64,000 nt of DNA from Ignavibacteriota bacterium. GTDB taxonomy: Bacteria > Bacteroidota > Ignavibacteria > UBA10030 > UBA6906. The stretch is from contig CAWDEM010000008.1 of assembly GCA_963801355.1 (NCBI GenBank), positions 2,688,001-2,752,000 on the forward strand. Direction: 5' to 3'. This document shows, piece by piece, positions 1 through 23,985 of this stretch. The notes beneath the pieces were generated by a model that worked only from the letters and a program-made list of their open reading frames with translations, was not told the origin of the DNA and did no database searches. Both the position numbers and the translations under genes were made by a program. Position 1 is the first letter of the stretch; each line of letters starts with the position of its first letter.

Positions 1-954
1 GACGGTGACATAATCGTACTTCGCGTCGCCGTAGACATTCCAGGAACCCGTCAGGGATTGCGGCGGTGGGGTTCCCGCCGGCAGCAGATCCACCTGGGAG
101 TGCGGGATCCAGGCCTCCTGATTGCCGGTCAGGGCTATGCGGTACTGACCACGCTGTTTGCCGGTAATCGCCAGACGCACGCCCGGCACAAGAAAGGTCC
201 GCTTTGCACCACCGAGCCGGTCTCCACCCAGACCAAAGTTCAGCGCAGGACGGTCTCCCACAGTAACGCCCACCAGCGGAAAGACTTCACTCTTGCAGGA
301 TATCCGTCCACGTCCCGTACGCGTGAAGAACAGCCCGGTGCTGTCTTTGACTGTGAATGTCACCGGAGTGTCATTCCACTGTTCGGCCCCCTTCACCCGG
401 TACGCCGTCCGGTAGATACCCCGAAGTCCGTTGGCCTCGGCTGCCGGCACCTCGTTCAGTGGGATGCTGTCCAGGGCGGTGACGATGCATCCGGGGGTGG
501 CCTTGCACTGCAGCAGCAACATGTCTCCCTGATCCAGCCAGAGGTCGCCCGCCGGTTCGAGCATTTCCTCGTCCACACGGAGAGTGTCTGCGGGAGTCGC
601 CATCATTGGTGGCGTACGTATGATCAGGAAGGATGTCTCAGCCACCACACCTGCCTGACTTCGCGCTGAGAGAATGAACCTATTTTCACCCACGTCGAGC
701 TTCAACAGGGTGGCGGTTGCCCCCGTCGGATACACTTTCAGTGGGCTCCCGTTGAGAGAGAGTGTGTTCCCGGGCAGCGTGCTCGCCGAAAGCCGGTACG
801 TCGCCGACCCTGTCACCGTGGTGTCTGCTTCAGGCACCACGAGGAGCAAAGGAGGGCGTGCGTCAGGCTGAGGTTGAGCGCCGAGAGGCGCGCTCCACGC
901 GGCGGCGAAAAATACGAGACCCGCACACACGAAAAGCGATTTCATGAGATCCAT
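1..954 (-). CDS. Probable N-acetylmuramoyl-L-alanine amidase, N-terminal part (runs off the left edge of the window)
   Basis: Not in the ORF track; translated by hand from ATG 954 (in-frame ATG 945): MDLMKSLFVCAGLVFFAAAWSAPLGAQ signal peptide, open to position 1. Contains LNFGLGGDRLGGAK plus an SH3-like 'YRIALTGNQEAWIP' segment, which I recognise from Bacteroidota-type Amidase_3 proteins. The catalytic domain would lie outside the window. Confidence 0.6.
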   Translation of the reverse strand, partial: MDLMKSLFVCAGLVFFAAAWSAPLGAQPQPDARPPLLLVVPEADTTVTGSATYRLSASTLPGNTLSLNGSPLKVYPTGATATLLKLDVGENRFILSARSQAGVVAETSFLIIRTPPMMATPADTLRVDEEMLEPAGDLWLDQGDMLLLQCKATPGCIVTALDSIPLNEVPAAEANGLRGIYRTAYRVKGAEQWNDTPVTFTVKDSTGLFFTRTGRGRISCKSEVFPLVGVTVGDRPALNFGLGGDRLGGAKRTFLVPGVRLAITGKQRGQYRIALTGNQEAWIPHSQVDLLPAGTPPPQSLTGSWNVYGDAKYDYVTV

Positions 955-976
955 CTTTTGTAGGTATTACCTCACG

Positions 977-3490
977 CTATTTCAACAGCAATATTTTCTG
1001 TGAGGCGCTGAATGCACTACGTCCCGCGGCGTCCGTTGCTGTGAGCCGGACAATGTACACCCCCGAGGATGATCCGCGGGGACCATCAGGCGCCCAGGTG
1101 ACAGTGTGCCTTCCGGAGGTCTGTGACTCGTGGACAAGCATCGCCACTTCACGGCCCAGTATGTCGTAGACCACCAACGTCACGATCCCATCCGAAGGAA
1201 GTCCATAGGTCAGGCGTGTAGACGGATTGAAAGGATTGGGGAACGCCGGGTACAGAGCATAAGCCCGGGGAGTTGTGAGCGGCTCCGTGTCAACGCCGAC
1301 GGTGCCGCGCTGGATCACTTCTATCTGATCGACATACGCCTGCAGGGTGGACTTGCTTTCACCGGGCAGATACCGGAACTGTACACCGTCGAAGCGCATG
1401 ATCCCTTCGAGGACACCGTTGCCGCTTCCGACCCCGGGGGTATCGGCCTCAAGATCCCAGTGGAGCGCCCGCCATCCCACCCAGTCAATCGCAAACCACC
1501 GGCTGACTTCTCTGTGCGCCGGCGCAGGGGCTGGAAATGCGTCCACGCTGTCAGCCACACAGAACCGCACCTGCGATCGACTCCCATCGCCGTACACATA
1601 GGCGCGCAGGACGGTACCTGTCTTGAGAAATTGGACTGTGCCCATCGCCGAGGAAGTGTCCAGCGGGACGCGCACGCCCCATGAGGCACTCGTCGTATCC
1701 CACACGCAGTACACTGACAGCGACCCCGGATTCCCCGGGATGATACCGATGCCCTGCGTAATCGTCGGCGTCACGGTGAGTGTATTCACGCCAACCCTGT
1801 CCTCTGCCTCCGGGGGCATATGTAGTCCAGTCGTGGCGGGGTTTACGGAGTCGATCACGGTGCTGCTGTAGGTCCCCGGCGCAATCGAGAAATTCCACAC
1901 AATCGAGGCGGGTAAGGGAATCCCATTGCCGAGCAGATCTTCCACCCTGCTGACCTGGATTCCGTAGCTGCCCCCGGCAATCACACCGCTGGGCAGAAAC
2001 ATTGTTACCCCCCCCTGGCCATTCGATTCCCGGTACTCCAACAAGCGCGACTGGAGGGAACCGCCATTCAGCCGGATCACGAAATTTGACGTCGTCACGG
2101 TGCTCTGTTTCAGCGGCTCATTGAACGTTATGTTCACCACGGGCGTCGGTGCCGGCAACTGGATCAGATTGCCCGGAAAGACGGAGGTGATTGCCGGAGG
2201 GAAGATGTCGGTGTACCTGGTCGTGAACCTCAGCACATAAGGATCCCCTGACACACCATCGCCATTGCCGTCGAAGGCCTGTCCTGACGCCGCCCGCGCA
2301 CCGGTGTCCACACGAACCTCGTATGTCACCCACGGGTCGAAATACGCCGCGTGTGTGTACGTCAACGTCGAATTGGAATTTGTCCACTGAAATATTCCTG
2401 GAACTGCCGGTGTGATTGAAAACGCAGTCCGCACCGTTGCGGTATCCATCGGCTTGGAAAACGAAAGCACCACCGGCGCAGAGACAACCACCGTCATGTC
2501 GTTGTTGGTGGGACTGCTCGCCCGCACCGTGGGATTGGCCTGGGTGACCAGCGTTCTGTCGACAAAAGCGGTGGCTCCCACACCGAGCGTCACCTGCACG
2601 GAATCCTCGCCATATTCGGGCGTTTCGAATCGCACAGTGTACGCCCCGGCGGGGAGATTGTCGAACATATAGTACCCGTTGTTGAACGCATCGCCGGTCA
2701 CCACCCGATCAATTGGGAGAAGGCGTACACGGGAGAAATTGATCGGCTTCGCAGTTGACAGATCCTGCTGTATGCCTGCAACAATGCCTGAGGTGTCTGC
2801 CGGTACGCCGAAGTACTGCATAAACCCGTCGCGGATGGCATACGCTTCTCTCTTCCGGTAGAGGTTGTTCATCAGGCGGCGTGTTTCCACCGGAACATCG
2901 TGGAACGATCCTTCGGAGAGTTGGCCGGGCATGAGAAGCCCGCTGAGAACGCCGAGGCGATACCCAAGGAACGAATTGTCCAGCCTAGTGTAGTAGGTTG
3001 TGGTGCGCAACGCCCCGTAGATCTTTGGAGAAATCAATCCCGCCATTGACAATGCTTCCGGCGACTCGGGCTGCCCACTCTGGACAGTACTTTCACGGAC
3101 CAGCAGGAGTGTATAGTTTGACGATGCATTAAAGGCATTGCTGTGAATGGAGTGAAACCAGTTCACATTGTTGAAGTTTGCCAATGCTACGCGCGACCCT
3201 AAGGTTGGTTCATCCGCATCGTTCGGGTAATCGTTGGTGTACCTTGTCAGAATTACCCACGCCCCACGTGCTTTCAGAAGTGTGTCGAGCCGCAAGGCCT
3301 TCTGCAAGTTGCTTTCCGATTCCCAGAATTCCGTCCCCGGGTCGGGAACGAGGTACCGATCATTTGCAGGGTTGTGGCCGCCATGACCGGGATCAATGCA
3401 GAATTTGAGTCCGCTCAGATCGGTGCGCTGTGCATACAGAAACGAAGTTGTGCATAGCATGACGGTGAGGAGAAGTGTCACTCTCTTCAT
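977..3490 (-). CDS. T9SS-secreted N-acetylmuramoyl-L-alanine amidase (Amidase_3 + carboxypeptidase-regulatory-like + two Ig-like domains + CBM-like domain + CTD)
   Basis: Start reassigned to MKRVTLLL (ATG 3490, ATGA overlap with the upstream stop). Zn-amidase residues in DPGHGG, WESE, SIHSNA and LSEGSF. C-terminal 'AFPNPFNPSTRL...SSGVYIVRL...KILLLK' sorting domain. Confidence 0.9.
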   Translation of the reverse strand: MKRVTLLLTVMLCTTSFLYAQRTDLSGLKFCIDPGHGGHNPANDRYLVPDPGTEFWESESNLQKALRLDTLLKARGAWVILTRYTNDYPNDADEPTLGSRVALANFNNVNWFHSIHSNAFNASSNYTLLLVRESTVQSGQPESPEALSMAGLISPKIYGALRTTTYYTRLDNSFLGYRLGVLSGLLMPGQLSEGSFHDVPVETRRLMNNLYRKREAYAIRDGFMQYFGVPADTSGIVAGIQQDLSTAKPINFSRVRLLPIDRVVTGDAFNNGYYMFDNLPAGAYTVRFETPEYGEDSVQVTLGVGATAFVDRTLVTQANPTVRASSPTNNDMTVVVSAPVVLSFSKPMDTATVRTAFSITPAVPGIFQWTNSNSTLTYTHAAYFDPWVTYEVRVDTGARAASGQAFDGNGDGVSGDPYVLRFTTRYTDIFPPAITSVFPGNLIQLPAPTPVVNITFNEPLKQSTVTTSNFVIRLNGGSLQSRLLEYRESNGQGGVTMFLPSGVIAGGSYGIQVSRVEDLLGNGIPLPASIVWNFSIAPGTYSSTVIDSVNPATTGLHMPPEAEDRVGVNTLTVTPTITQGIGIIPGNPGSLSVYCVWDTTSASWGVRVPLDTSSAMGTVQFLKTGTVLRAYVYGDGSRSQVRFCVADSVDAFPAPAPAHREVSRWFAIDWVGWRALHWDLEADTPGVGSGNGVLEGIMRFDGVQFRYLPGESKSTLQAYVDQIEVIQRGTVGVDTEPLTTPRAYALYPAFPNPFNPSTRLTYGLPSDGIVTLVVYDILGREVAMLVHESQTSGRHTVTWAPDGPRGSSSGVYIVRLTATDAAGRSAFSASQKILLLK

Positions 3491-4407
3491 TGGCCCACCT
3501 CTTCGTACGTCAGCATCAGGAGTGAGCCATCCGCCGTTGAGCAGAGAATACGATTGTCCACCGGAGAACATGCCGGCGCAAGCTCTATCACCGGAGTATC
3601 TGTGAGCCGTACACTGCGGGCGCCATCGGAGCTTGTTGCATAGAGATCGGAACCCGTAATGACATGACCGTCGTTCCTTTCCCGCATGGAAATGACCCAT
3701 GCGCCACTCCGCGTCCAGACAGGTGCATCAATACGTCCCAGGCGGGCAAGGACATTCCCCTGCAAATCGCACACGAATGCCCCGCGGGCCATGTCGTACG
3801 CGAGCAGGCGTTTCCCATCGGCGGAAAGTGACGGCCAGATGTAACTGCCGTCACCAAAGGGATCGAGCAGGGCTTTCCGGCCGTTCTTCAACAGCGCAAT
3901 CTTGGTATTCTCGACACCGAGCAGGGCTACAGTCCCCGCAGCGGGTTCTTCATCGCCGAGAACGACGTAGCCACGGCGCGTGTCATTGACGAGCAGCGCA
4001 TCCCCCGAGAAGACGGGAATATCGACCGAGATTCCGCCGGTCATTCTGGCCGACGATCCTGTTGCCAGATCGACGTGTACAATCTCCTGCGTCCGGTCGC
4101 CCGGTCGGAGGCCATCGAGCGTTCTCCGGTACGCTACCCGTCCCCCATCGGCGGACACCGCCCACCCGAAGCCAGCACCTGCATCATCGGTGATCTGCGT
4201 CAGACTGCTGTTCCGGAGATCATAGCGCCAGAGCCCTCGATAGTGCGAAGAAGTCACAAGGAACGCCTGTCCGTCCGGCACCCAGCCGGGAGCCGTCCAG
4301 AATTGCTCTGCAGGCAGCGGCAGCGCTTGCGTACTCGTAATATGGATCTGGCCGGCGCCGGAAAGACTGCCGGCAGCCAGAAGAATGCTCACACACCATA
4401 GACGCAT
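3487..4407 (-). CDS. TolB-like/PD40 beta-propeller exported protein
   Basis: Signal peptide; repeated 'PxWSxDG'-like blades (PGWVPDG, AVSADG, PSLSADG, PACSPVD); translationally coupled to the amidase. Confidence 0.7.
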   Translation of the reverse strand: MRLWCVSILLAAGSLSGAGQIHITSTQALPLPAEQFWTAPGWVPDGQAFLVTSSHYRGLWRYDLRNSSLTQITDDAGAGFGWAVSADGGRVAYRRTLDGLRPGDRTQEIVHVDLATGSSARMTGGISVDIPVFSGDALLVNDTRRGYVVLGDEEPAAGTVALLGVENTKIALLKNGRKALLDPFGDGSYIWPSLSADGKRLLAYDMARGAFVCDLQGNVLARLGRIDAPVWTRSGAWVISMRERNDGHVITGSDLYATSSDGARSVRLTDTPVIELAPACSPVDNRILCSTADGSLLMLTYEEVGQ

Positions 4408-4411: not shown

Positions 4412-6811
4412 TTAATCCTTCGCTTCTGTGATCTTTCTCAGTTCGCGCACCCTCTCGTAAAACTCCTGCAGGTTCATCTCCTTGAGAAAGATGAGTCCAC
4501 GCGCGGAGCGCAGGCGTGGGTGGGCATGCTGCTGGAAGAAGTCGTTGCCCAGGCAGGTCTTCATCATGTCGTATTGTCCCACCTGAATTTGCTGTGCCAG
4601 TTCAGAAAACGGACCGTCATATTCGTAGCTCGGGAACGAAGCCGCACTTTGCGAACCGAAGCAATTCATGAAGGCGGTATGCAGCAACGAAAGGGAATTC
4701 AGGGATACCGGCACCATGAGGTCGGCCTCCGATGGACGGAACCGGTACCAAACGTTACGGTACCCCCACACGCGGATCGCACTGTTGCCGCTTTCCTTCT
4801 CGTACATCCGCAGTCCCTCTGCGACCGCCTGGAGGGCCTTGTAATGCGTGTCAGGGCCGCTGCCCTCCGGGTCGAAAGCCACGGAGATGACATTTGGTTT
4901 CACGCGTTTGATGAGCTGGTAGATCGGAATCACATCACGCTCCACCTCAGGCTCTTCGGAGAAGATATCGCCCTGGTAAAAGCCGAGGCGGAGCGCAGAG
5001 ATGGCGGATGCCTCGATGCCAAAGTACGCCCAGAGTAATTCCACCTCCCACTCCCGGATGGTTCCCTTGAACACCTGGACATCCGGCGGGTCTTTCGCGC
5101 CCGGATACTGGGTGACAAAATACTCGTGCAGTTCCTTCACCCGCAGACGCAACACCCTCATGTCGCTGGTATGGTACACCTCGATGAGGTTCCGCAGGAT
5201 GCGGCGTGCTTCACCTTCGTTCTCCTTCTCCGTGCTTTTTCCTGCAATCCCGTCGAGGTAGAGAAAGACGTCTTCCATCCGCTTCGCGCTGCTCTTCGGA
5301 TTGAAATATCCTTCTTTCAGGAGGTGCTGAAAAGACGGTGTCTCGAGGAACGTCTCAAGGTTCTTGACAATCGAAAGACAGAACGGATTCGAGACAGCCG
5401 TAAAGCCGGATGTCAGGTTTGCAAAGTAGTGTTTGTTGGTCGGGTCGCGCACGAGGTGATAGATGTGCGCGAGGTATCCCAGCATGATATCGTCGTGATG
5501 CGGTTCGGTGTGCAGAAACACGGTCCCGGTCACCGGGGCGAGCCCCTTGTCAATCTTTGCCACCATGCGCCGGCGCGCACCGGCAATCAGCTCGGCAGCG
5601 GGCTTTCCTGTCTTCTTCAACAGTGCGCTGCCAAAGCGATCGGCTTCCACATCCTGGCCCGTCAACTTGGTGAGCTGTGTCTTCCGCCCCAGCGAGATCG
5701 GAATGATGACATCATCCACATCAGCGTCGCTCAGCTGATCCTTCTTGCTGAAGTCCACCAGACGGCGCTCGATCAGGTGGCTCGCAGCACCCCTGGTGAG
5801 GTACATGCGTCCACCCTCAAGGTCATGCAGGACGGATGCGGGATATTGCGGACTCTTGTCTTCCTCGACGGCGGAAGCCACGATGGGAGCTTTCGCATCC
5901 CCGGCAGCAATGATGATTGCCGTCGCCGTGGGGTTGTACGTGATCGTCGCCAGGCCGATGGTAATCACGAGGCGGCTTCGTGAGACTTCAATGCCGCCGA
6001 GATCCCCGGCTGCGGCAGCCTGCGTTTCGTAATTCGTACCCGTCAGACGGGTGACGGAGTACACACTGGAGCCGCGGATATTGAAGGCGATGTGCCCGTC
6101 GGGGCCGATGCCCCCCAGGAAAAATCCGATGCCGCCCATCTCCCGGATCTTCCGCTCGTATTCGCTGCAGAATTCATCCACACGGTTGATGGTTTCCCGC
6201 TGACGTCGCTCCAGATCCGTGCGCGTCTGGCGCACCCGCAACGACAGGTCCACGATGTTGTTGGGAAATATGTCGTTCATCGTCATGCCAGGAGGCACAC
6301 CGAGATCGGTGGCATCGATGAGGAGGGCATTCTCCGGCCGCAGGCCGAATCCCCGGATATAAAACTCATTGACGTACCAGTTGAAGCTGTTCAGCTGCGT
6401 CGCATCCATGGGATAGAATTCATCGATCTGCACAAAATGCAGGCTCTCCATGTCCGGACGGCGGCTTCCTTCGATATTGTATGATGCAAGCTGCTGCCGT
6501 ATCTCCGGCGCATCCCATCGTTCGATAATGCGGCCCACCCATTTGATGAAATGCTCAGGCGTCTTGCCCGTCGGCAGAGAAATCACGCCACCGGGGTTCT
6601 TAAGCACCCACTCCACAAACCGGAATGCCGTGAGCTTGCCGAGTAGAGGAAAGTTTTCCACCTCGATGATCTTCATCTTCTCGGTCGGAGGGTACTGGAA
6701 TTGCCGGCCGGTCTTCTGAAGTTCACATGCTTCCACGGATGAAGAGATGTCGTATGTCCTCACGGTCTTCCCTGCCAATGTGCTACTTAGTGTGATTGCC
6801 CTGCTTTCCAC
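4412..6811 (-). CDS. nagB: Glucosamine-6-phosphate deaminase fused to a PIG-L/LmbE-like deacetylase domain
   Basis: NagB motifs LPTGKTP, QIDEF and GGIGPDGHIAFN; C-terminal HTEPHHDDI (HxDD) and GPDTHY. The true start may be the GTG at 6763. Confidence 0.85.
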   Translation of the reverse strand: MESRAITLSSTLAGKTVRTYDISSSVEACELQKTGRQFQYPPTEKMKIIEVENFPLLGKLTAFRFVEWVLKNPGGVISLPTGKTPEHFIKWVGRIIERWDAPEIRQQLASYNIEGSRRPDMESLHFVQIDEFYPMDATQLNSFNWYVNEFYIRGFGLRPENALLIDATDLGVPPGMTMNDIFPNNIVDLSLRVRQTRTDLERRQRETINRVDEFCSEYERKIREMGGIGFFLGGIGPDGHIAFNIRGSSVYSVTRLTGTNYETQAAAAGDLGGIEVSRSRLVITIGLATITYNPTATAIIIAAGDAKAPIVASAVEEDKSPQYPASVLHDLEGGRMYLTRGAASHLIERRLVDFSKKDQLSDADVDDVIIPISLGRKTQLTKLTGQDVEADRFGSALLKKTGKPAAELIAGARRRMVAKIDKGLAPVTGTVFLHTEPHHDDIMLGYLAHIYHLVRDPTNKHYFANLTSGFTAVSNPFCLSIVKNLETFLETPSFQHLLKEGYFNPKSSAKRMEDVFLYLDGIAGKSTEKENEGEARRILRNLIEVYHTSDMRVLRLRVKELHEYFVTQYPGAKDPPDVQVFKGTIREWEVELLWAYFGIEASAISALRLGFYQGDIFSEEPEVERDVIPIYQLIKRVKPNVISVAFDPEGSGPDTHYKALQAVAEGLRMYEKESGNSAIRVWGYRNVWYRFRPSEADLMVPVSLNSLSLLHTAFMNCFGSQSAASFPSYEYDGPFSELAQQIQVGQYDMMKTCLGNDFFQQHAHPRLRSARGLIFLKEMNLQEFYERVRELRKITEAKD

Positions 6812-8517
6812 TCATCGGGCAGTGTTCGCAACCAGTCCCGCATATACCGGCGCGCGACTTCGTCATGCTCCACCGTCGAAGGGCGAGCGTGGAACCGTCC
6901 GGCCGTGACCGCATCAAGTCCGGCCGCGAACTCCGCATGTTCACTCTTGAGATGGTCTGTGTATGCCGCTTCGATAATCCCGCTTCCTGAAGTGAGCCAT
7001 TTCTGGAAATAATCGAAATTCCCGTAGAACGCATCGAAAAGGAACAGATGCGTTATCTGCGCATTCATGCCGCCGCGGTCGACACAAAACGCCACGGGAC
7101 GGTAGCCGCCGCTGTGGGCGGCAAGCACCATCTTGTTGACCTTCGGGACTTTGATGACACCCTCGCGCTGCATTGTCGACAGCACGTCATCCACGAGATG
7201 TTTCAAGCCGTCCACATCCTCCATTTTGCCGCAGAAGGAATCCCGCGCGCGGTAGGGACCCTGGGGGAGCACCAGAAGCGCATTGATGTGCTCGTCCTCA
7301 AGGGCCTGCGGCAGCAGGTATCGCTCCAGCACTCCCATATTGTCGTTCTCATTGCCGTGGAAGTACACCACCATATTCACGCCGTCAGCGCTTTCTTGCA
7401 GACCTTCCGGAACAAAGACGACGATGCTGCTGTCCGCATAGTGCGGAAAGTACGGATAGACTGTGCCGTCCCCTCCGGTAAAACCGTTTGCGCGGGCCGG
7501 ATGTGGGAACGGAGCCGCCGGCGAACGCCAGATTCCCCACTTGCCTCCGGGCATCATGTTCCAGTCCACGTCGGCTGCCTTCACACGACCCGGAGCGTAC
7601 CCTGTCGAACCGGTGAAATGGTTCCAGATCGCGCGGCTCACATGCGCACCGAGAAGTATGCCGGTATTGTTGAGCCCCTCACTATGATCCGGCTGCTTAT
7701 CGATGAAAATACCGATCGCCATGTCCAGCTTGTCCGACAGCACCAATCCGGCGTCGGTCTTTGATTCGTTGACAAACCCGGATTTGTGTGCGACCGCGAA
7801 TGACGCGCATTCGGAGGCAGGAAGCAGACGGGGGATCATGTCATCGTAGAACTGCCCCTTGAGCACGGTGATCATGGCTTCCGATGAGGCTGCATCGATG
7901 AGCTCATTACGGTACATCCGCCCCAGCAGCATGACCATATCCTCCGGGGTCGAGAGGCCGATCCCGTAACGAATACCCTCCGGGGTCCGCTGCTTTGTGT
8001 CCCAGGAATACAGTCTGTTGAGGAGGCGCGTATTCTTGAGTCCGAGACGGACCATCAGGTCGTTCACCACCGCCAGGCGCTCCGCGTGCGCGCTCCCCAT
8101 CCGGTCGAGCACCAGATTGGTGGCCGTATTGTCGCTAAGCGTGATCATCAGATTGACGGCATCCTGCAGGGTAATCGTTGCGCCTTCGCCGAGCCTCTCC
8201 AGAACACCCGATCCGGGCTTCTTATCGGCGGCGGTAAGTGTCACGGTGCTTTTGGGATCCAGCGTGCCATCGCGGACCATCTGATAGTAGGCTACCATGA
8301 CCGGCAGCTTGATAAGGCTTGCTGTCGGGAAGCGTTCTTCAGCATTGTACTGCACAACTTCGCCTGTGCGGAGGTTCTTCGCCATCACACCCAGGTGTCC
8401 GCCGTACTCGCGTTCCAGGCGTTGGAATTCAGCAAGCAGTGCGTTGTGTTCCGGTTGTGCCGTCATCGGTGCGATCATGAGTGTCACAAGGAGGAAAGGA
8501 AGGCAGAGGTTTTTCAT
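6787..8517 (-). CDS. Exported serine hydrolase: class A beta-lactamase/PBP-like domain fused to an alpha/beta-hydrolase domain
   Basis: Signal peptide; SxxK (ASLIK), SDN and KSG motifs; C-terminal YFHG, AHSGG (nucleophile elbow), LFDAFY and EHD. Confidence 0.8.
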   Translation of the reverse strand: MKNLCLPFLLVTLMIAPMTAQPEHNALLAEFQRLEREYGGHLGVMAKNLRTGEVVQYNAEERFPTASLIKLPVMVAYYQMVRDGTLDPKSTVTLTAADKKPGSGVLERLGEGATITLQDAVNLMITLSDNTATNLVLDRMGSAHAERLAVVNDLMVRLGLKNTRLLNRLYSWDTKQRTPEGIRYGIGLSTPEDMVMLLGRMYRNELIDAASSEAMITVLKGQFYDDMIPRLLPASECASFAVAHKSGFVNESKTDAGLVLSDKLDMAIGIFIDKQPDHSEGLNNTGILLGAHVSRAIWNHFTGSTGYAPGRVKAADVDWNMMPGGKWGIWRSPAAPFPHPARANGFTGGDGTVYPYFPHYADSSIVVFVPEGLQESADGVNMVVYFHGNENDNMGVLERYLLPQALEDEHINALLVLPQGPYRARDSFCGKMEDVDGLKHLVDDVLSTMQREGVIKVPKVNKMVLAAHSGGYRPVAFCVDRGGMNAQITHLFLFDAFYGNFDYFQKWLTSGSGIIEAAYTDHLKSEHAEFAAGLDAVTAGRFHARPSTVEHDEVARRYMRDWLRTLPDEWKAGQSH

Positions 8518-8538: not shown

Positions 8539-9690
8539 CTAGACTTTGACGAACCATTTCATTTTCCACATGAACCAGACGACAACAAACATCACCACAA
8601 TGAAGCAGATGGCATACAGTAACGATGCGTTCAACGGGCTTGCGAACGGGACAAAGAAATGTGTGTAGATATGTCGTTGCAGCGAGATCAATGTTCCGTC
8701 ATCCTGGGCGACCTTGATCAACCCCATTGTGCGGCCCAGAACGCCGGCCAGCACGAACACGGTAATGGCGTTCATGCCATAAATATTGAACGGCAGCGCC
8801 CATTTCTTGTAGCCCTTCACATCGATGAGCCAGTAGAACATAGCGAAAATCACGGACGCCCATCCGGCCATGAAGATGGTATAGCTGGGGGTCCAGAGGT
8901 TTTTGTTGATCGGAAGCCACATATCGAGAATCGCACCAAGGAGCAGGAGAAACTCACCGATGACGAACATCCAGACCGTTTTCTCTTCGACGCTCCGTTT
9001 TGTCCGCAGCCAATGTCCCATCATCACACCAAGGAGCGTAGTAGCGATCGCCGGGATGGTGCTGACAATGCCTTCCGGATCGAAGCCCATGACCGGCGCT
9101 CCGCGCCATGTGTGACCAGCGAGGACGGTGGAGTCCACCCACCAGCAGAGACTTCCTTCCGGTCGCAGCACGCCGGCACCGAAGCCGGGGACGGGGATCA
9201 TTGTTACCATAAGCCAGTATGCTGCCAGCAGTCCGACGATCCACGCGATCTGCGCCCGCCACGACGTCCAGAGGAATATCGCGCTGGCGATCAGGTAGCA
9301 AATGGCGATACGCTGCAGAACTCCCGGGATGCGGATATTCGCGAAAGAAAACTGGTGCCCGAACAGCAACCCGAACGGAAATCCCGCCAGGAACAGGCCG
9401 AGCCCGAAGATGATCACGGCACGGCGGAACACATGGAGCAGCAGCTGGCGTTTGTTTGCCCCCTGTTCCACGCGTTTGGCAAACGAGAGCGTCATCGCAA
9501 CGCCGACAATCCAGAGGAAAAACGGAAAAATGAAATCCGTAAACGTCCATCCGTCCCACGCCGCGTGCCGGAGTTGCGGATAGATGTCGCTCCATGTGCC
9601 GGGATTGTTGACCATGATCATGCCGGCAATCGTTGCGCCCCGGAAGGCGTCGAGCGACAGGAGCCGCTGTTGACCTGCTGGTGAGCTCAT
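8539..9690 (-). CDS. HGSNAT/NagX-like (DUF5009) membrane acyltransferase
   Basis: RLLSLDAFRG...MIMVNNPG, HAAWDGWTFTDFIFPFFLWIVG, RIPGVLQRIA, FDPEG and PINKNLWT motifs; many transmembrane helices. Confidence 0.85.
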   Translation of the reverse strand: MSSPAGQQRLLSLDAFRGATIAGMIMVNNPGTWSDIYPQLRHAAWDGWTFTDFIFPFFLWIVGVAMTLSFAKRVEQGANKRQLLLHVFRRAVIIFGLGLFLAGFPFGLLFGHQFSFANIRIPGVLQRIAICYLIASAIFLWTSWRAQIAWIVGLLAAYWLMVTMIPVPGFGAGVLRPEGSLCWWVDSTVLAGHTWRGAPVMGFDPEGIVSTIPAIATTLLGVMMGHWLRTKRSVEEKTVWMFVIGEFLLLLGAILDMWLPINKNLWTPSYTIFMAGWASVIFAMFYWLIDVKGYKKWALPFNIYGMNAITVFVLAGVLGRTMGLIKVAQDDGTLISLQRHIYTHFFVPFASPLNASLLYAICFIVVMFVVVWFMWKMKWFVKV

Positions 9691-14520: not shown

Positions 14521-14604
14521 GGCGCTATCCCCTTTTCCCCCTGACGTACGGTATGATCGTTGAAGAACACTACGGAATATAAGTGTATCCGTGCTCAATT
14601 ACGA

Positions 14605-14638
14605 CAGAGGCATCCGACTGTCGGGTCGGATGCCTCTG
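14605..14638. other. Perfect 14-bp intergenic hairpin with no U-tract (mRNA-stabilising or weak terminator)
   Basis: CAGAGGCATCCGAC / GTCGGATGCCTCTG with a 6-nt loop, between the 14687 gene and the GHL10 gene. Confidence 0.6.
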
Positions 14639-14686
14639 CCTGGTACATCACACACGGCATAACAGCCCCGTGCGTGAGACTTCATA

Positions 14687-16024
14687 CTACTTCATGAGCA
14701 ACATCTTGTTGATCAAGCGGGCGCCATTCGACGTCAGCGTGTACACGTATGTGCCGGAGGCCAGGCGTGAGGCGTTGAACGTCGTCTTGTATGTGCCCGG
14801 ATTCAGGTTCTCGTTCACCAGTGTCGCGACTTCCTTGCCCAGCATGTCATACACCTTCAACGTGGTGTAGCCGGCCGTGGTCAGGGAGAACTGGATCTCG
14901 GTCGACGGGTTGAATGGGTTCGGGTAGTTCTGCGACAGCGTGTAGCCGCTCGGGATGCCATCGTCGATCGGATCAACGCTGGTCACGGTGCGTTTGAACA
15001 TCTGGATCGCCGCTTTGGCATGGTTGTAGGTTGCCACGTATGCCGTATCTCCGGTCACCGAGAAGGCGATACCGCGTGGACGCGGACCCAGGTCGGACGT
15101 AGTGAGATTGTACGGATACGCACCCCAGTTCCAGCAAATACTGTCTTTTATTGCCTTGGTGGCTACGTCAATGGCATAATGTACACTATGGGTCCACGGC
15201 GGCAGCGTCTTTCCATAGTTGACCGTGTCGACGGGGCCCGCACTGAAATAGAGGTAGCCGTCTTTGGCGTTCCAGCCGATAGATTCTACCTGGCATCCAT
15301 CCGCGATACTGTCTTTCAGCGCGTACGGTCCAAGTGTACCGTTGTCGCTGTGGTGCACGTAGATTTTCTTGAGCGAGTATCCGCACTGGTAGATGTCATT
15401 GCCGTCTTTAGAGACTTCAATGGTCCTCGCATAGCCAGAGACAGTCGCGACCGCGTTGCCGAGGTCTGAGAAATCGGGGCCAAAGATTCTGATCGGATAG
15501 CCGGGAGCGACGTTCCCCGTAATCATCTCGTTGGCGCTTGTGAACGCCGGGGCAGTCAGGCTTCCCGTGAGTCCCACGTGCCCCATGCCGACACCCGTTT
15601 GGTAGTTGAATTTATAGTAGTGACCTTTGCTCGCGGCATCACCGCCGGTGTTGAAATACCCCGAGACAACGACATTTCCGTCGGCATCCGTCCGTGCACC
15701 GCGATGGCTGCCTCCGGAGTTGAAGGTGTCAATCCTTCCCGTCGTGGCGATTGTCTTGATTCGTGAAATTGCAGCTTCCGTTCCATCAGGATTGTATACG
15801 TAGACGGCCACAATTCCTGTGCTTCCAAGCGAATCGCTGTTCGTCCGGCCGAACGGAGTAACCCAGATCTTTCCGACTTTGTCGACAGCAATCCCGTGTA
15901 CGCCGGTGCCGAAGGCAATCGCCGTGTCCGGGAATACTTTGACAAACGTCCACTGCGTGGCGGCCATGCCGACCACGGTGCAGCAGACCGTCAGTATGAG
16001 CGCAACGGTAAAAGCTCTCTTCAT
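14687..16024 (-). CDS. T9SS type A sorting domain protein with probable beta-propeller
   Basis: Strong SD (AAAGGAGG) before MKRAF; signal peptide; HGIAVD and PRGIAFS NHL-like blades; QNYPNPFNP...KMLLMK CTD. Confidence 0.8.
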   Translation of the reverse strand: MKRAFTVALILTVCCTVVGMAATQWTFVKVFPDTAIAFGTGVHGIAVDKVGKIWVTPFGRTNSDSLGSTGIVAVYVYNPDGTEAAISRIKTIATTGRIDTFNSGGSHRGARTDADGNVVVSGYFNTGGDAASKGHYYKFNYQTGVGMGHVGLTGSLTAPAFTSANEMITGNVAPGYPIRIFGPDFSDLGNAVATVSGYARTIEVSKDGNDIYQCGYSLKKIYVHHSDNGTLGPYALKDSIADGCQVESIGWNAKDGYLYFSAGPVDTVNYGKTLPPWTHSVHYAIDVATKAIKDSICWNWGAYPYNLTTSDLGPRPRGIAFSVTGDTAYVATYNHAKAAIQMFKRTVTSVDPIDDGIPSGYTLSQNYPNPFNPSTEIQFSLTTAGYTTLKVYDMLGKEVATLVNENLNPGTYKTTFNASRLASGTYVYTLTSNGARLINKMLLMK

Positions 16025-16136: not shown

Positions 16137-17357
16137 TTAGGGCAACGTCCGACCGTAGTACGGAGCTCCGTTCTTTTGCGCATTTAACTTCACCGCTGAA
16201 GCGGGTCCCGGAACCGAGGACCGGCTTTGAAACAGGTCGACGCCCTTGCCCCAGGCGAGGGACACCGTTGCACCTTTGATGACACCTGGGTAGTACGCTT
16301 CGCTGGTCTTGTCCGGGTGAACCAACCTGATGCCTTCTGTCCCGTCGGTGCCGACATAGAGGTCACCGTCCGAAGAAAAGGTCAAGGCGTAAACGCCGGA
16401 CCCGCTCGCTCCATACACGGATGAAAGATTGAAGTACTCCTGCTCCGCATCCAGGCTGTCAGTACCGACCACGGGGAATTTCCAGACTTTTTCGAGTGAA
16501 TCTCGTTTCCCGCCTACATACACAGCGCCGTTATAGACGCGGATCGCACGGAGCGTTCCCACGCAGGGAAACGTCTTCACGACCTTCGCCTGGCTGACCC
16601 GGTAGATGTTGCCGTTCGTGCCAGCCGCCCAGATGTTGCCGTTCGCATCGAAATCCAGATCCGACAACTGGCCGAGTCCACCTCCTGACAACCAGATTGC
16701 CGACGCACCGCCGGCCGGGGGAATTCTGAAAATAATCGTTCGCCCGGTGGGAACGCAGAACATTGCCCCGCCGGGGCCGAATCTCATATTCCTCCAACTT
16801 GGCACCGTCGTACCGAAGACCGGCGAGTAGTCACTCTTCACACCGGCAGGCGTAAATTTCTTGACCCCGACGCCGCCAGTTATAGAAATCATCGACACAT
16901 AGAGGTTACCGTCATTGTCGCATTCGACGCCGACGCCTTCCTCACCTGATCCAAAGGTCGCGTACTTTTCGTTTGCGGCAAGTTCCAGCTTATACAGCAC
17001 CGGATCGCTGTAGAGGTCGGACTTGGCCACTGCGACCTTGACAACAATGGAATCCTTCGGCAATGGGGGTGCCGTCACAGTGAGCTGAGTCGCTGTCGAC
17101 GTCAGCACAGGAACTGCGGTCTTGTCGAAGAACAGCAGATTATTGCCGGGCACCGGTGAGAAATTCTGACCGTTGATGGTCAGCGTCGTCACGCCGGCAA
17201 GTGCTCCGGTAGCGGGGACGATGCCCGTGACCTTGGGTTGCGGCCCGCTCACATAGTTGGGATCATAGAGGCTTGCCGGCGGATCCTCCTTGCAGCCCGT
17301 CCAAACGCCCGCAAGCATGACCACGGCCAGCAGCAGAAGAGTAGCTCTTGGTATCAT
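16137..17357 (-). CDS. Lipoprotein with IPT/TIG domain and beta-propeller
   Basis: Lipobox-like VWTGC; 'PKVTGIVP...TLTINGQNFS...TQLTVTAP' IPT/TIG signature; DxxGNLYV-type blades. Confidence 0.8.
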   Translation of the reverse strand: MIPRATLLLLAVVMLAGVWTGCKEDPPASLYDPNYVSGPQPKVTGIVPATGALAGVTTLTINGQNFSPVPGNNLLFFDKTAVPVLTSTATQLTVTAPPLPKDSIVVKVAVAKSDLYSDPVLYKLELAANEKYATFGSGEEGVGVECDNDGNLYVSMISITGGVGVKKFTPAGVKSDYSPVFGTTVPSWRNMRFGPGGAMFCVPTGRTIIFRIPPAGGASAIWLSGGGLGQLSDLDFDANGNIWAAGTNGNIYRVSQAKVVKTFPCVGTLRAIRVYNGAVYVGGKRDSLEKVWKFPVVGTDSLDAEQEYFNLSSVYGASGSGVYALTFSSDGDLYVGTDGTEGIRLVHPDKTSEAYYPGVIKGATVSLAWGKGVDLFQSRSSVPGPASAVKLNAQKNGAPYYGRTLP

Positions 17358-17394: not shown

Positions 17395-18405
17395 TCAGAA
17401 CGAGAATTTCAGCGCAACTGTGTGGACGTTGTCGAATATGCCGAACGGCGTGTAGGCGTAGTCAACTCCCAGACCGACGGGACCGAGAGCTTTCTGGAGC
17501 CCGACGCCGTACGAGAATTTTTGTTCATCCGCGCGAGAGATGAAGCCCGCGCGCAGAGAGAGAATCTGCATGAACGTATACTCTCCGCCCATCTTTATGC
17601 GTTCGGGGTAGTCCCGCGGATGTTCCGCATCGATGGCCAGCAGGAACTGGTGCATCTCAGTATCGTCGATGATAAAATCGAGCACATTCATGGACACGCC
17701 GACCCTGAACGTCAGGGGAAGCTGGAAGCCTTCATCGATGTAGCGTGCCTCCTTTGAGAAATTCCTCACGACGACACCGAACTGCAGGCTCTTAAAGCCG
17801 GTCTTGTAGGTCATACCGAAATCAAACGCAAACAGCTCCGCCTCGTCATTGCGTGTGAGATAATCTCCGCTCTGCAGCACCTGGATGATGCCGTCGCCAA
17901 GATTCTGGTGCACCCACTTGATGGCCCCGCCGACGGCGAACTTGTCGCTCAGGGCCCGGGCATATCCCACACCGACCATTGTCGATTTCGGGTTGAAGGT
18001 CCCCATATCGATGTACCCGGCGGTGTTGCTGGACCGGATGGTCCCCTGCAGATCCCCGTAGTCCACGGTTTGCACCATGAAGCCGAGTACGCCATATTCC
18101 CCCTGCCAGGGGCTGACCGTAGCGGCGGCAAAATTGTGCTTGATATCCGCAATCCACGTCACCTGGCCGAGAGAGACGTTCGCCAGATCAGTGGTCCGTG
18201 CCATGCCGGAGGGGTTAAAGAACATCGATGCCGCATTGGCTTCAACGGCGGTAAATGCTTCTCCCAACGAAGCTGCCCTCGCATCCACAGCGACGTTCAG
18301 GAATTTCATGCCTGTCTGCGCAAGCTTCTGCTGGCCAAACACTGTGGCAGTCAGGACACAGAGGCCAACGAGAAGGATCGGCACGAAAGTCAGTAGTCTT
18401 CGCAT
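17395..18405 (-). CDS. PorV/PorQ-family (UPF0164) outer-membrane barrel, copy 1
   Basis: FLNVAVDARAASLGEA..SMFFNPSG, LPLTFRVG, DYAY and terminal Phe. Confidence 0.85.
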   Translation of the reverse strand: MRRLLTFVPILLVGLCVLTATVFGQQKLAQTGMKFLNVAVDARAASLGEAFTAVEANAASMFFNPSGMARTTDLANVSLGQVTWIADIKHNFAAATVSPWQGEYGVLGFMVQTVDYGDLQGTIRSSNTAGYIDMGTFNPKSTMVGVGYARALSDKFAVGGAIKWVHQNLGDGIIQVLQSGDYLTRNDEAELFAFDFGMTYKTGFKSLQFGVVVRNFSKEARYIDEGFQLPLTFRVGVSMNVLDFIIDDTEMHQFLLAIDAEHPRDYPERIKMGGEYTFMQILSLRAGFISRADEQKFSYGVGLQKALGPVGLGVDYAYTPFGIFDNVHTVALKFSF

Positions 18406-18433: not shown

Positions 18434-20590
18434 TTAGCGTATGATCGACAGTTTGCGGATCGCCCGCTCGCCCGTCTCGAGGTTCTGGAACACAACAATG
18501 TAGATGCCGCTCACCACAACCTGGCGCGACGACGTCACCGACTTCCAGTACGCATCACCGCTCCCGTCCAGGTGATCGAACTCATAAATCAACTCACCCA
18601 GCTCGGAATAAATGCTGATACGGCACTGGCCCGGGATATTGTAGAACGCAATCTTGTCCGGTTCGTCCGGGAAGCGCAGGTCGAGAGCGTTGGAAGAGAG
18701 CACAAACGGATTCGGCACAATGCGGATTGAATCCAGTCCCTGACCCGGAGGACGTTTTGCCTTGAGGTTCGCACCCGTAAATGTCTGCGTGTACACCCGG
18801 TTGCTAAGCAGGGTATCCCGAGGGGTCAATCCGACACCCGTATTGAGTGCCGGATCCCCGATTGTGACAACATAGTAGAAGTAGGAGACACCGCGCAGGG
18901 CAGTGGCATCGTTGAACGCCCGCTCCGCCGGCCCGACCGTTCCGATCGGCACGAAGTCGGCATCATAGCGGCCGGTGGCGCGGTAGATCTTGAACCCTTT
19001 CAGGTTGGGATCACCCGCGTTTGTCACTTCCCATGTCAGTGCAATTGGGTCACCGCTCATGACCGAAAACATACTTGGCGGAACCGGTGCGGCGGGAATC
19101 TTGTAGCCGGTCTTGTAGTTGGCAATGGCACGGCGGAACGTCTGGAAGAGCGAGTCCTTTCCCGTCAGAACCGAGTCATTCTTCTGCTTTGCCGCCCCGG
19201 GAGCCGTAGGACCGAGCTGGTTCGCCTTCCAGGCACGCCCGATCTCGATACAGCGCTCGCGGCTCAACCCGGCCGCCCCCTCAGCGATGACTATATGAAC
19301 GCTCTGCCCGGGTGCCAGTGTATACGGGCCGTACCCGTCAGCATTGGAAAAACCGCCGGCAGAGCCGTTCACGGAATGAGCGTCGTTGAACGAGGGATTT
19401 CCCGTCGGCATGGCGAAATTGCCGGCGGGCTCCACAGCCCACGCATGCCGGCCATAGTGACCGCGCTGTATCCAGTTCGTATATTCGTTCTTGCACTTGT
19501 CACCGTTGAACTCGCTGTTCCCTGAGGTGTTGGTCTCGTCCGAACCTTCCCACGAGGTTGTGCTTGGCTGCGAGAAGTCGTCTGTCGTGTCGGTCGGCGA
19601 CTTGTCCGCGTGGATGGTGACGTGCCCGACAAAATGCGGCGCGCCGATACGGCCCGTGGTGTCGTATGCCTTGTTGTAATACGGGGTCCAGATCGGTCCG
19701 CCTATGTTGTCGTACTGTGTGAACGACGGAAACTTTCCGTGCCAGACGAATTGCGCGCGCATGTGCGGTGCCGAATAGACGCCCGGGATATCCACAGCGT
19801 CATCGGTGTCTGTCGCGCCGGTTGTCGGAAGAATGAATCCGTCGCCACGGACGTCATTCATCGTGTTCATTCCCCAGCTTGTCCCGTTGCCAATGACGTA
19901 GCGTGTGTCGGCACAGGGTGCGAGGCGGTACTGCCAGTAGAAGTAGACCCCGGTCAGCGTCTGCGACGGCATCTCAATTGCCGCGTCGGCGTCCGTATTC
20001 CCGGTATTGGTGAAGACATAGTCGTAGATCATGTAGTTGTCATGGTACTGCTGGCTGAACTGCATGATCTTGCGCGTCATCGTGATGCCGATGGATGTAT
20101 TCACCACATTCACAATCATCCGGTCCGGAACCATTGTGGGGTCGACACGGTTATTGTCGACCGGCTTCCCTTCCGTGGGACTTCCATCCACGCTGATCTC
20201 CGGGGGGGGATACTTGCTTACCATTTCGAACTTGATCGGGATGAACTCGCCGGTGCCCCGCACGCGCGGACCCACATGCACCACCTTGTAGGGCCACGCG
20301 ACATTGTTGGCATCGGTATAGTCTGTTGTGCCGATCCAGAGACTCTTTGCGGCCTGAGCGTCCTGATACGGATACCAGCCCGGCCACTGTAAACCGTCCT
20401 GTTGGTCTGCGCTGGAAGACCGGCCGACTTCAATTTCGCATCCCATACTGGAGTACCAGTTCTGGAGTGAGCCGGCTGCCATCCATTTCACCTCCTGCTG
20501 GGCCAGGGCGTGTGTGCCGCCGGCAATAAGCAGAAACCCGAGGAAGGCGATGACACCGGCGATGTACGTTTCACGACGAGCGTGCTTCAT
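18434..20590 (-). CDS. Exported protein with FN3 domain and atypical T9SS-like CTD (TBDR partner 1)
   Basis: Signal peptide; GFKIYR...YFYYVV FN3; C-terminal IRIVPNPF...FYNIPGQCRISIYSELGELI...SGIYIV...KLSIIR. Start at ATG 20590 after GAGG (alternative GTG 20602). Confidence 0.75.
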   Translation of the reverse strand: MKHARRETYIAGVIAFLGFLLIAGGTHALAQQEVKWMAAGSLQNWYSSMGCEIEVGRSSSADQQDGLQWPGWYPYQDAQAAKSLWIGTTDYTDANNVAWPYKVVHVGPRVRGTGEFIPIKFEMVSKYPPPEISVDGSPTEGKPVDNNRVDPTMVPDRMIVNVVNTSIGITMTRKIMQFSQQYHDNYMIYDYVFTNTGNTDADAAIEMPSQTLTGVYFYWQYRLAPCADTRYVIGNGTSWGMNTMNDVRGDGFILPTTGATDTDDAVDIPGVYSAPHMRAQFVWHGKFPSFTQYDNIGGPIWTPYYNKAYDTTGRIGAPHFVGHVTIHADKSPTDTTDDFSQPSTTSWEGSDETNTSGNSEFNGDKCKNEYTNWIQRGHYGRHAWAVEPAGNFAMPTGNPSFNDAHSVNGSAGGFSNADGYGPYTLAPGQSVHIVIAEGAAGLSRERCIEIGRAWKANQLGPTAPGAAKQKNDSVLTGKDSLFQTFRRAIANYKTGYKIPAAPVPPSMFSVMSGDPIALTWEVTNAGDPNLKGFKIYRATGRYDADFVPIGTVGPAERAFNDATALRGVSYFYYVVTIGDPALNTGVGLTPRDTLLSNRVYTQTFTGANLKAKRPPGQGLDSIRIVPNPFVLSSNALDLRFPDEPDKIAFYNIPGQCRISIYSELGELIYEFDHLDGSGDAYWKSVTSSRQVVVSGIYIVVFQNLETGERAIRKLSIIR

Positions 20591-23600: not shown

Positions 23601-23834
23601 CAGGGCAGCTGTGACTTTGTAACGCCCCGGGGGGATGTTGATGATGGCGAAGTAACCATCGGGATTAGTTGCCGCCCCGAGCGTCGTTCCATCGATGACA
23701 ACGTTGACGCTTGGCAGCGGTTCGCCCGTTCGTGCGTCCCTCACCGTACCGGCGATTTTGCCGGTCGTTCCTGAAAATGCTACAGCAGTGAGAAGGACCA
23801 GGGCGGCGGTGAACAGAGTAACAAACACCCTCAT
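20649..23834 (-). CDS. TonB-dependent receptor 1
   Basis: N-terminal carboxypeptidase-regulatory-like domain (GKIAGTVRDARTGEPL); plug motifs IRGG and GGFSAEYGN..SGVINVITK; barrel motif SPRLGISFPI; ends PRRVFFGIRMSFEL. Confidence 0.92.
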   Translation of the reverse strand: MRVFVTLFTAALVLLTAVAFSGTTGKIAGTVRDARTGEPLPSVNVVIDGTTLGAATNPDGYFAIINIPPGRYKVTAALVGYKPTSAVNVRVDIDQTTDLNLGLGEEAIAGEEVTIVATRPVVQRDVAASRANIEIADVEKLPVTSVAGAVGLQAGIQGLEIRGGTISETAFMVNGMTLRDERTNAPYSSVSLLAVQDIQVQTGGFSAEYGNVRSGVINVITKEGGKSAYSVGLMARASNATPKHFGNSIYDKNSYWVRPYVDDEVAWVGTSATNPATGLPYWDPWTQKQFPSFEGWNSIAKKNIGTAMELTPEALQRLFLWQRRKIAEVTDADYDVDLSFGGPVPYLVDEFGGLRFFATFHKTQQVYLVPLSDNAWRDYNGMLKITSDVTGGMKLTVEGMMGRTSGTNNNNGGTPGIFQSPEDIGAVMNRVSYIDTRIFATDYWCPTYTDYYSLNAKLSHALSAKTYYDASLSMFRSEYNTYPGRGRDREKKYLFGNGYYVDEAPFGFDSLPVPAAGLADIRFGVGFSNSRDTSRVTLYTAKFDITSQLDKANQVKAGVELMYTDQDIRYGLYDAMLKDNVFANGYHRFPLKGALYVRDKLEFEGMVADLGVRLEYLNPQGSWYSYGAYSDAFSSSGSAGIDTLLVQQPVEKQLNISPRLGISFPISEEAKLYFNYGHFYQARTPDNMYLLRRSGFDNSIRRVADPNAPLPRTVSYELGYEHSLADEFLLRVAAYYKDITDEPLLVTYTNRKSTVEYSQYTSNAYRDIRGFELSLYKNRGNWYQGFINYTYDVRSSGWYGIDSYFQNQIDQLKYELANPATTQQNKPIPRPFARLNLDFFTPQEFGPTVLGLHLLADWRVNFVGSWSSGYYLTWTGGASIPGVLNNAQWSDYWNVNMRITKSFQFGRMNLQLYADLTNLFNYRYMTTYGFVTSTDYNDYMQSLHLAAFSPEVDTQVGYVNISGDDHPGNYRKDGVAFQPIVAYRTLAAMQSIPKPESRPFYYAVDAQQYYQYVNGAWQVVDQGRVQQVLDDKAYIDMPNMDTFTFLNPRRVFFGIRMSFEL

Positions 23835-23956
23835 AGACGCTCCTCAAATGGTAGGATGTTGGTACTAAAATATCAATGAGAACATGCGTGCGGTAGATTG
23901 TCTGCAGGAGGTGTACAACCGGGTTGTCCTGACGCAGACCATCAGTTAATAGTCAA

Positions 23957-23985
23957 ATGATAGTGAACGTGTGCGTAACTGTCAA
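23957..23985 (-). promoter_or_regulatory. Sigma70-type promoter for the TBDR1/peptidoglycan cluster
   Basis: Minus strand TTGACA-17 nt-TATCAT. Confidence 0.7.

Follow-up and report, generated by a model that had tools for sequence, protein, structure and literature searches.

A run of 14 genes on the minus strand of the 64-kb stretch of Ignavibacteriota DNA analysed here (hereafter the window; C8:2688001-2752000, C8 being its contig) is probably, with a likelihood of about 65% in our estimate, part of a peptidoglycan (PG) utilisation locus for external murein, every functional step being read from the genes. Gene content, family assignments, conserved linkage and predicted folds are established directly. 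The new part is the link of PG enzymes to a five-gene importer, which lacks SusD and consists of a TonB-dependent receptor (TBDR), a "cargo" protein with a type IX secretion system (T9SS) C-terminal domain (CTD), a PorV-like barrel, a lipoprotein and a β-propeller protein; the enzyme half resembles known salvage clusters of Bacteroidota. Little is settled about the route by which PG from dead bacteria enters Gram-negative scavengers through their outer membrane, and the locus offers a candidate for the importer along with the secreted hydrolases that accompany it.

All 14 genes (Table 1) are co-oriented and lie where the original prediction, which was made from the letters of the window, had placed them. 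Its family labels could be confirmed for the TBDR, PorV_fam, TIG, GHL10, NlpC/P60, epimerase, Beta-lactamase2 and Amidase_3 proteins, whereas the NagX and NagB labels stayed under the cut-offs. Likewise, one protein had been called a penicillin-binding protein (PBP)-like enzyme/esterase: the Beta-lactamase2 half stands, but the "esterase" half is weak, with no Pfam family and an HSGG motif only. The propeller was recovered by both an AlphaFold2 model and a fold search, and T9SS CTDs are present on two hydrolases, as Por_Secre_tail on GHL10 and as a weak match on the long amidase. The second amidase, which is cut by the window edge, is 593 aa long when read from the whole genome, its C-terminal half containing Amidase_3, and the locus runs around 10.6 kb past the left edge (C8:2677421-2687121), where the rest of this gene is followed by genes for a GNAT protein, AmpG, a GT2 glycosyltransferase, a DUF4922 protein, NamZ, a BadF/MurK-like kinase and a fusion of a GH3 NagZ with a β-lactamase-like domain; of these, ampG and namZ have the opposite orientation. 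The genes murQ, anmK and nagZ, noted before as unseen in the window, are indeed outside it and present in the genome: nagZ lies 7.7-10.6 kb left of the window, and murQ and anmK elsewhere, murQ on another contig near mraW/ftsI. The earlier idea that the locus harvests external murein is supported by the linkage described below, by the finding of the rest of the pathway and by the presence of the T9SS core, "external" being suggested by the T9SS tails.

The evidence that carries this reading is the conserved neighbourhood of the importer. Cargo genes were matched in 24 of 61 genomes (60 of them relatives), which gave 39 loci, and 73 loci from GTDB genomes were added; after open reading frames (ORFs) of less than 600 aa and two duplicates had been dropped, 102 rows remained, including paralogues of the genome itself. 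In a tree calculated with FastTree, a quick method that gave long branches among these paralogues and was applied to the cargo, the window cargo falls into a clade of 68 rows with an SH-like support of 95. Relatives carrying the cargo are titled Ignavibacteria, Melioribacteraceae, Balneola, Caldithrix and Marinimicrobia. With GHL10 (score of at least 200), YkfC, epimerase or amidase within 10 kb as the strict marker, a PG hydrolase is found at 50 of the 67 other clade loci (GHL10 at 41) versus none of 27 outside the clade, and at 40/47 versus 0/16 of the loci with at least 8 kb of downstream and 3.5 kb of upstream sequence; these counts come from kin of a single clade, with markers and thresholds derived from this very locus, and are not a statistical test. 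The linkage, on whose presence in relatives the original prediction had been staked, has thus held. Two loci outside the clade (L061 and L071) have a distant GHL10 under the score threshold.

The steadiest neighbours of the importer clade are the T9SS-tailed, Cwp19-like GHL10 and Amidase_3, and the link survives altered gene order between lineages. GHL10 lies downstream with YkfC and the epimerase in the host family; in Ignavibacteriaceae, GT2 is upstream and the amidase-TolB pair divergent, and in Melioribacteraceae, GHL10 is upstream with GT2-DUF4922 downstream. Balneola loci have GHL10, NagX or the BadF kinase beside the importer, and the same importer clade adjoins GHL10 in Stygiobacter electus 09-Me. 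Relatives also carry PG hydrolases beside the locus that were outside the first marker set, namely Amidase_2-CTD and M23 proteins. Other clades of the module adjoin GH31/GH2/GH95, GH94/GH3/CBM9 or GH18 genes (68 of the unannotated ORFs were scanned), and since different clades sit with different sets of carbohydrate-active enzymes, module clades appear to follow substrates. In the genome itself, a PG marker lies within 15 kb of two of 17 such modules. At the genome level, the 15 relatives with the clade have a close GHL10 in 14, a T9SS-type amidase in 15, YkfC in 15 and AmpG in 13 cases, versus 6, 8, 14 and 17 of the 45 other relatives (compiled by hand; two amidase matches are weak, with 30-36% identity). 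Three of the six GHL10 cases among non-carriers start their contig with a propeller or TIG gene, and the importer was probably lost there to an assembly break. In one relative (G001), importer, GHL10 and both Amidase_3 genes are jointly missing at the locus.

Two further features of these neighbourhoods were observed. The pair of GT2 and DUF4922 genes (L001:14698-17278, left of the window) tracks the importer clade even without other PG genes, and in Balneola (L058:18037-20478) the importer is followed by a NAGPA/phosphodiester glycosidase with CTD or by up to three tandem GHL10 genes.

The GHL10 protein has Cwp19 of Clostridioides difficile as its sole solved relative at an E value of 0.001 and keeps the Cwp19 active-site residues W60, Q102, W154, R159, D221-D222-Y223, Q319, Y321 and F386; Cwp19 cleaves PG (PMC6016235; PMC5765458). 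Both amidases keep their zinc-ligand motifs. The closest structures to the NlpC/P60 protein are those of Bacteroides YkfC (3npf, and 3pvq with an E value of 2e-62), and the 419-aa ORF contains the catalytic Cys295 and His354 as well as the specificity pair Tyr173/Asp313, whose equivalence to Tyr80/Asp221 is based on a hand-counted offset of 20 residues. The neighbouring epimerase matches the structure 3iji, which we take to be BT1313 and which is called a muconate cycloisomerase in the PDB list. In YkfC-type enzymes, the Tyr/Asp pair limits the substrate to free stem peptides as opposed to polymeric murein (PMC4600125). A role of the NlpC/P60 protein as a wall lysin was ruled out by these recycling determinants, which mark it as an enzyme of stem-peptide recycling. 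It could also be argued that the secreted hydrolases are weapons that lyse live neighbours, with the importer and salvage genes using the debris: secreted enzymes that cut glycan and amide bonds could lyse walls lying exposed, Micrococcus cells are lysed by Cwp19 (PMC5765458), and relatives add CTD-bearing M23 and Amidase_2 proteins. However, no immunity, contact or delivery gene was recognised at the locus, and GHL10 and the long amidase, with around 790-840 aa each, would not be expected to reach the wall of intact Gram-negative cells, which renders this explanation improbable.

Downstream steps of the pathway can be assigned to the left flank and to distant genes. NamZ matches 4k05 (E 1e-158), and the BadF-family kinase matches the N-acetylmuramic acid (MurNAc)/N-acetylglucosamine (GlcNAc) kinase 8zo3 (E 1.5e-29). 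The NagB-like half of the fusion protein scores 184 bits against a PRK02122-like cut-off of 384. No NagA was found over cut-off in the genome, and because of this, together with a weak PIG-L match and an HxDD-type motif, the C-terminal half of the fusion may supply the GlcNAc-6P deacetylase. A SpoIID/LytB gene is located at a second module (see below) and not in the salvage cluster. A MurNAc auxotrophy caused by loss of murA was rejected because murA is present and over cut-off. An antibiotic-resistance function of the β-lactamase-like domains was likewise dismissed, as their NCBIfam scores are all far under the cut-offs. NagB, NagX and GH3 proteins would suit any source of GlcNAc, a GH18 gene lies near the locus in one relative (L045), and NixC of Xanthomonas also takes chito-oligosaccharides (PMC4173781); the locus could therefore be a general one for GlcNAc-containing glycans (chitin, chito-oligosaccharides, N-glycans) that resembles the nag system of Xanthomonas and takes PG as a secondary substrate. 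This, too, is improbable: GH18, GH19 and GH20 have no match among the 14 genes or in the left flank, the amidases, YkfC, the epimerase, NamZ and AmpG are specific to murein, and a locus with GH18 and NagB (L021) uses a different cargo clade.

The five importer genes stay together as a fixed unit in relatives. The receptor is a TBDR but not a SusC protein, as it reaches 51 bits with the SusC/RagA model (cut-off 368). The gene after it has no SusD match and a β-rich model, and SusD PF07980 was not found across the genome, this being the SusD family covered by the genome-wide search. No match to family libraries was obtained for the cargo, and a profile search against the PDB returned Fn3-type matches only. 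Its model (pLDDT 91, from a 73-row alignment) contains a β-supersandwich similar to the N-terminal domains of GH94 and GH15 enzymes (Z 18.8, rmsd 3.0 Å over 253 residues to 8rf9; Z 17.9 to GH94 2cqs) and a PorZ-like CTD, called by fold only (Z 13.0, rmsd 2.1 Å over 90 residues to PorZ 5m11). Cargo residues specific to the window clade are W15, Q34, R200, N205, D216, D220 and H254 (mature numbering). Foldseek gave low TM-scores and the ESM Atlas unnamed clusters only; no SusD-like chain is among the listed fold matches, which alone does not exclude a SusD-like fold. The barrel exceeds the NF033709 (PorV_fam) cut-off of 90 bits and has no PorP/SprF match at an E value of 0.001. Co-folding of cargo and barrel scored 0.88 versus 0.01 for the best control, with the interface on the CTD, at least 95% of contacts shared between runs and a partner pLDDT of at least 87; in the calibration, which is roughly applicable as alignments were self-supplied, the mark was reached by 116 of the 157 pairs with solved structures but by only 2 of the 215 mismatched ones. 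Since structures of PorV-CTD complexes are already available (PMC12618676), this result may reflect likeness to known complexes. The propeller model (pLDDT 88) resembles NHL/SMP-30-type propellers (Z 26.6, rmsd 2.8-3.9 Å). Type A CTD matches are found on propeller, GHL10 and long amidase, with signal peptides judged by eye, and the genome encodes the T9SS core (SprA, PorU and canonical PorV) as well as TonB. PorV-family genes over cut-off number 21 in it; for 17 of these, a TBDR gene lies no more than two genes away, and around 190 of its ORFs were matched by CTD-bearing queries.

Variants of the importer were noticed in relatives. Many loci of Ignavibacteriaceae and Marinimicrobia have an unnamed lipoprotein-like gene, encoding about 315 aa or about 220 aa, between cargo and PorV-like barrel. 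In one locus (L018:14079-17864), a cargo of the window clade is fused to BNR/sortilin repeats (1262 aa), and no PorV gene follows it in the stretch examined.

It is tempting to combine these findings into the following scheme. Because of their T9SS tails, the Cwp19-like GHL10 and the long Amidase_3 protein should be exported by the T9SS and act beyond the outer membrane, where they would break down foreign sacculi, with glycan fragments and free stem peptides as products. The cargo, which its own PorV-like barrel would anchor at the surface, would bind the fragments via its β-supersandwich and pass them to the TBDR, thereby filling the job of SusD, with the TIG lipoprotein and the propeller as accessories. 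Once in the periplasm, stem peptides would be broken down to meso-diaminopimelate (mDAP) and L-Ala-L-Glu by the second amidase together with YkfC and the epimerase, and the glycan would be trimmed by NamZ and NagZ. Disaccharides would be imported by AmpG, and fructose-6-phosphate and ammonia would reach metabolism through the action of the MurK-like kinase, AnmK, MurQ and the NagB fusion. That the murein is "external" is deduced from the T9SS tails, and its source may be necromass or prey. A broader proposal is evenly balanced in our judgement: Ignavibacteria and related lineages of the FCB group (such as Balneolaceae) would carry a dedicated outer-membrane PG importer whose build is undescribed, namely a TBDR with a cap formed by a T9SS-secreted binder on its own PorV-like barrel, as the core of a true PG utilisation locus, and be specialist necromass recyclers, some genomes, including this one, having another module of this build that is linked to murein genes. 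If true, Ignavibacteria of wetlands, sludge and the subsurface take part in necromass turnover, and the SusD-less TBDR-cargo-PorV module gains a specific substrate that is cheap to test.

The transcription of the locus appears to be divided. The near-consensus promoter proposed earlier is present in front of the importer, with 11/12 consensus positions, and five of six relatives inspected have this element upstream of their receptor; the promoter scan alone is weak, with 14 such sites in the region versus 9.5 expected. Gene junctions, described as short or overlapping, do include overlapping ones but extend up to 166 bp, three of them measuring 87-166 bp. The single-operon picture has to be revised: a transcript of all 14 genes is unsupported given a conserved terminator-like hairpin after gene 5, the propeller gene. 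Among 63 regions 3' of propeller genes, a count that takes in duplicates and two tandem copies, 47 have a stem of at least 11 bp, mostly with a U-tract, versus 5/300 random 160-mers and 2/75, 6/107 and 6/51 regions after TIG, cargo and GHL10 genes, respectively. A REP-like repeat was rejected as an explanation, as the genome holds no second copy. As this conserved stem follows the propeller gene, the importer is probably transcribed on its own, apart from the enzyme genes; the U-tract is poor in this genome, and read-through or an internal promoter is possible. Just past the hairpin (window 14604-14573, minus strand), a -10-like hexamer is found at a 17-base spacing from a weakly conserved upstream hexamer, and this spacing is fixed in three relatives' loci read by eye (L002, L004 and L016); the pair is a possible internal promoter for the enzyme genes. 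In loci of the Melioribacteraceae type, a propeller/Y_Y_Y histidine kinase and a LuxR response regulator are encoded upstream of GHL10 and importer, and are candidate regulators of the locus.

Several observations, beyond the shared descent of the loci compared, weigh against the use of external murein. Cwp19 is 13-66 times slower than lysozyme, and wall breakdown as its main role has been doubted (PMC5765458); the YkfC-type protein is no evidence for an attack on intact walls, and the fold of the cargo, as modelled, names no ligand. A strict PG hydrolase is lacking at 17 of the 67 clade loci and at seven of the 47 well-flanked ones, one of which (L015) has a GHL10 just beyond the stretch examined. 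The relative G020 (96% complete, eight contigs) keeps the enzyme cluster and an M23-CTD gene without an importer-clade cargo; its cluster adjoins a different module, an orthologue of the divergent module of the window, and G035 looks similar. CTD tails direct proteins to the surface in Bacteroidota, and the same is assumed for Ignavibacteria. The enzyme genes could form a cluster for recycling of the cell's own wall, as in other Bacteroidota, with an importer that recaptures shed muropeptides or carries an unrelated substrate and is kept by inheritance. The genes ampG, namZ, ykfC and those for the kinase, GT2 and epimerase are known recycling genes, murQ lies among housekeeping genes, and both the separate hairpin of the importer and the enzyme cluster of G020 fit this explanation, as does the indirect evidence for uptake of PG products by NixC in a stationary-phase monoculture of Xanthomonas (PMC4173781). 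However, the T9SS tails would put GHL10 and the amidase outside the outer membrane, away from the own sacculus; GHL10 and the T9SS amidase, and not AmpG, track the importer; the link survives rearrangement across families; and the clade was found in just 15 of the 60 relatives, a patchy distribution for a housekeeping function. We regard own-wall recycling as unlikely and external murein as the better reading.

A TBDR-cargo-PorV module or a polysaccharide utilisation locus (PUL) dedicated to PG was not described in the literature searched, which consisted of mostly open-access main texts without supplements. The most similar cluster is the operon Tanf_08345-08385 of Tannerella forsythia (gtf, lytB, ampG, namZ1, murT, murK and murQ), with which the locus shares clustered genes for AmpG, NamZ, a MurK-like kinase and GT2. 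T. forsythia has been shown to use foreign murein; the portions of these accounts at hand name no outer-membrane importer and call the amidase unidentified (PMC5388701, PMC7670621, bioRxiv 2021.12.02.470905). Here, by contrast, the cluster is joined by a TBDR module and two T9SS-tailed hydrolases, murQ lies apart from it, and murA is present, whereas T. forsythia lacks MurA/B, so that the host is not a MurA-less auxotroph. The epimerase YkfB and the peptidase YkfC of Bacteroides (BT1313/BT1314) correspond to two adjacent enzymes of the locus; the proposal made for them concerns products of own-wall turnover, without an importer or secreted glycosidase in the part of the report concerned (PMC4600125). 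The combination of a TBDR, a surface binding partner and co-located enzymes for one substrate, with conserved linkage, is that of SusC/SusD PULs, but the partner is a T9SS-tailed β-supersandwich on a dedicated PorV-like barrel rather than a helical lipoprotein, and the substrate is murein as judged from the genes. In its workings the locus resembles a PUL, though not one of the SusC/SusD kind. The nag system of Xanthomonas campestris, a carbohydrate utilisation system containing a TBDR (NixC), is similar in its indirectly supported uptake of PG products; as described, it is a broad GlcNAc system without T9SS parts or a stem-peptide pathway (PMC4173781). In Flavobacterium, cargo genes with a type B CTD are likewise followed by their own shuttle barrel, which is PorP/SprF, and the cargos are adhesins, unlike the PorV/PorQ-family barrel and PorZ-like CTD found here (PMC12618676). 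Cytophaga hutchinsonii chu_1276-1280 is also an atypical PUL without a SusC/SusD pair, but acts on cellulose, and PorV is unmentioned in the sections covering it (PMC12016534). Many outer-membrane carbohydrate-active enzymes have been reported for Ignavibacteria, with nothing on this locus in the text concerned (PMC11495043).

Table 1. Features of the locus and related loci (window positions unless a locus number, L, denotes a stretch around a cargo gene)
Feature	Position	Strand	Basis
TBDR, 1061 aa	20649..23834	-	CarboxypepD_reg + Plug
T9SS-tailed cargo (β-supersandwich, Fn3, CTD), candidate substrate-capture cap	18434..20590	-	no family match; predicted model
PorV/PorQ-family barrel, predicted holder of cargo CTD	17395..18405	-	NF033709 199.8 bits; co-folding
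IPT/TIG + propeller-like lipoprotein, position like that of SGBP-B (surface glycan-binding protein B)	16137..17357	-	PF01833; lipobox-like N-terminus
T9SS-tailed NHL-type β-propeller, final importer-unit gene (gene 5)	14687..16024	-	PF18962; model + fold search
T9SS-tailed GHL10 glycosidase, near C. difficile Cwp19	12160..14520	-	PF02638 + PF18962; 5oq2 E 1.6e-87
YkfC-type SH3b-NlpC/P60 γ-D-Glu-mDAP peptidase, signal peptide-like N-terminus	10858..12072	-	3npf E 8e-65
L-Ala-D/L-Glu epimerase, twin-arginine-like N-terminus	9737..10861	-	3iji E 4e-155; NF011708 under cut-off
NagX/HGSNAT-like membrane protein	8539..9690	-	NF046061 198 bits, cut-off 480 not reached
Class A β-lactamase-like/PBP serine enzyme + unassigned HSGG-motif domain	6787..8517	-	PF13354; SxxK at 67; PDB matches
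NagB-like deaminase fused to PIG-L-like domain (candidate NagA substitute)	4412..6811	-	PRK02122-like; PIG-L E 0.032; HxDD-type motif
TolB-like propeller, co-travels with T9SS amidase	3487..4407	-	PD40; adjoins amidase in relatives
T9SS-tailed MurNAc-L-Ala amidase (Amidase_3, Big_5 x2, CTD)	977..3490	-	zinc-ligand motifs; weak CTD match
Second Amidase_3 protein, 5' part, no CTD match	1..954	-	window edge cuts gene
Sigma-70-type promoter of importer unit	23957..23985	-	11/12 consensus positions; -35 at 23985
16-bp hairpin, conserved terminator-like position 3' of gene 5	14603..14640	-	U-tract poor in this genome
Histidine kinase/LuxR upstream of GHL10	L068, L075 (S. electus 09-Me), L083, L095, L100, L101, L104, L106, L109, L113
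Inserted lipoprotein-like gene	L063:999-1946 + 21 other loci; L061:12253-12909		no Pfam match

Further modules of the same type are encoded on the contig. Divergently from the locus (window 24208-33644, plus strand) lies a module of an FG-GAP-CTD protein, a TBDR, a cargo of 1180 aa and a PorV-like barrel, in which three genes (FG-GAP, TBDR and PorV) are each spread over more than one frame, possibly by assembly errors. Its orthologue with 63% identity flanks the enzyme cluster of G020, and in L078, L089 and L105 related genes come after the propeller; the divergent module may thus be a partner or substitute importer. A third module of the same build (FG-GAP-CTD, TBDR, cargo of 1176 aa and PorV-like barrel; window 33764-43262, minus strand) is convergent on it, the two cargos being 37% identical. 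A further TBDR-cargo-PorV module lies at C8:2101262-2117583 (L130), with SpoIID/LytB and Amidase_2-Big_5-CTD genes upstream and two GNAT genes, an F5/8 protein gene and an SSF transporter gene downstream; judged by these neighbours, it is possibly a second murein-linked importer with a cargo of a distant clade. Finally, window 48967-56756 (minus strand) contains an α-2-macroglobulin and PBP1c pair, an ordinary known tandem.

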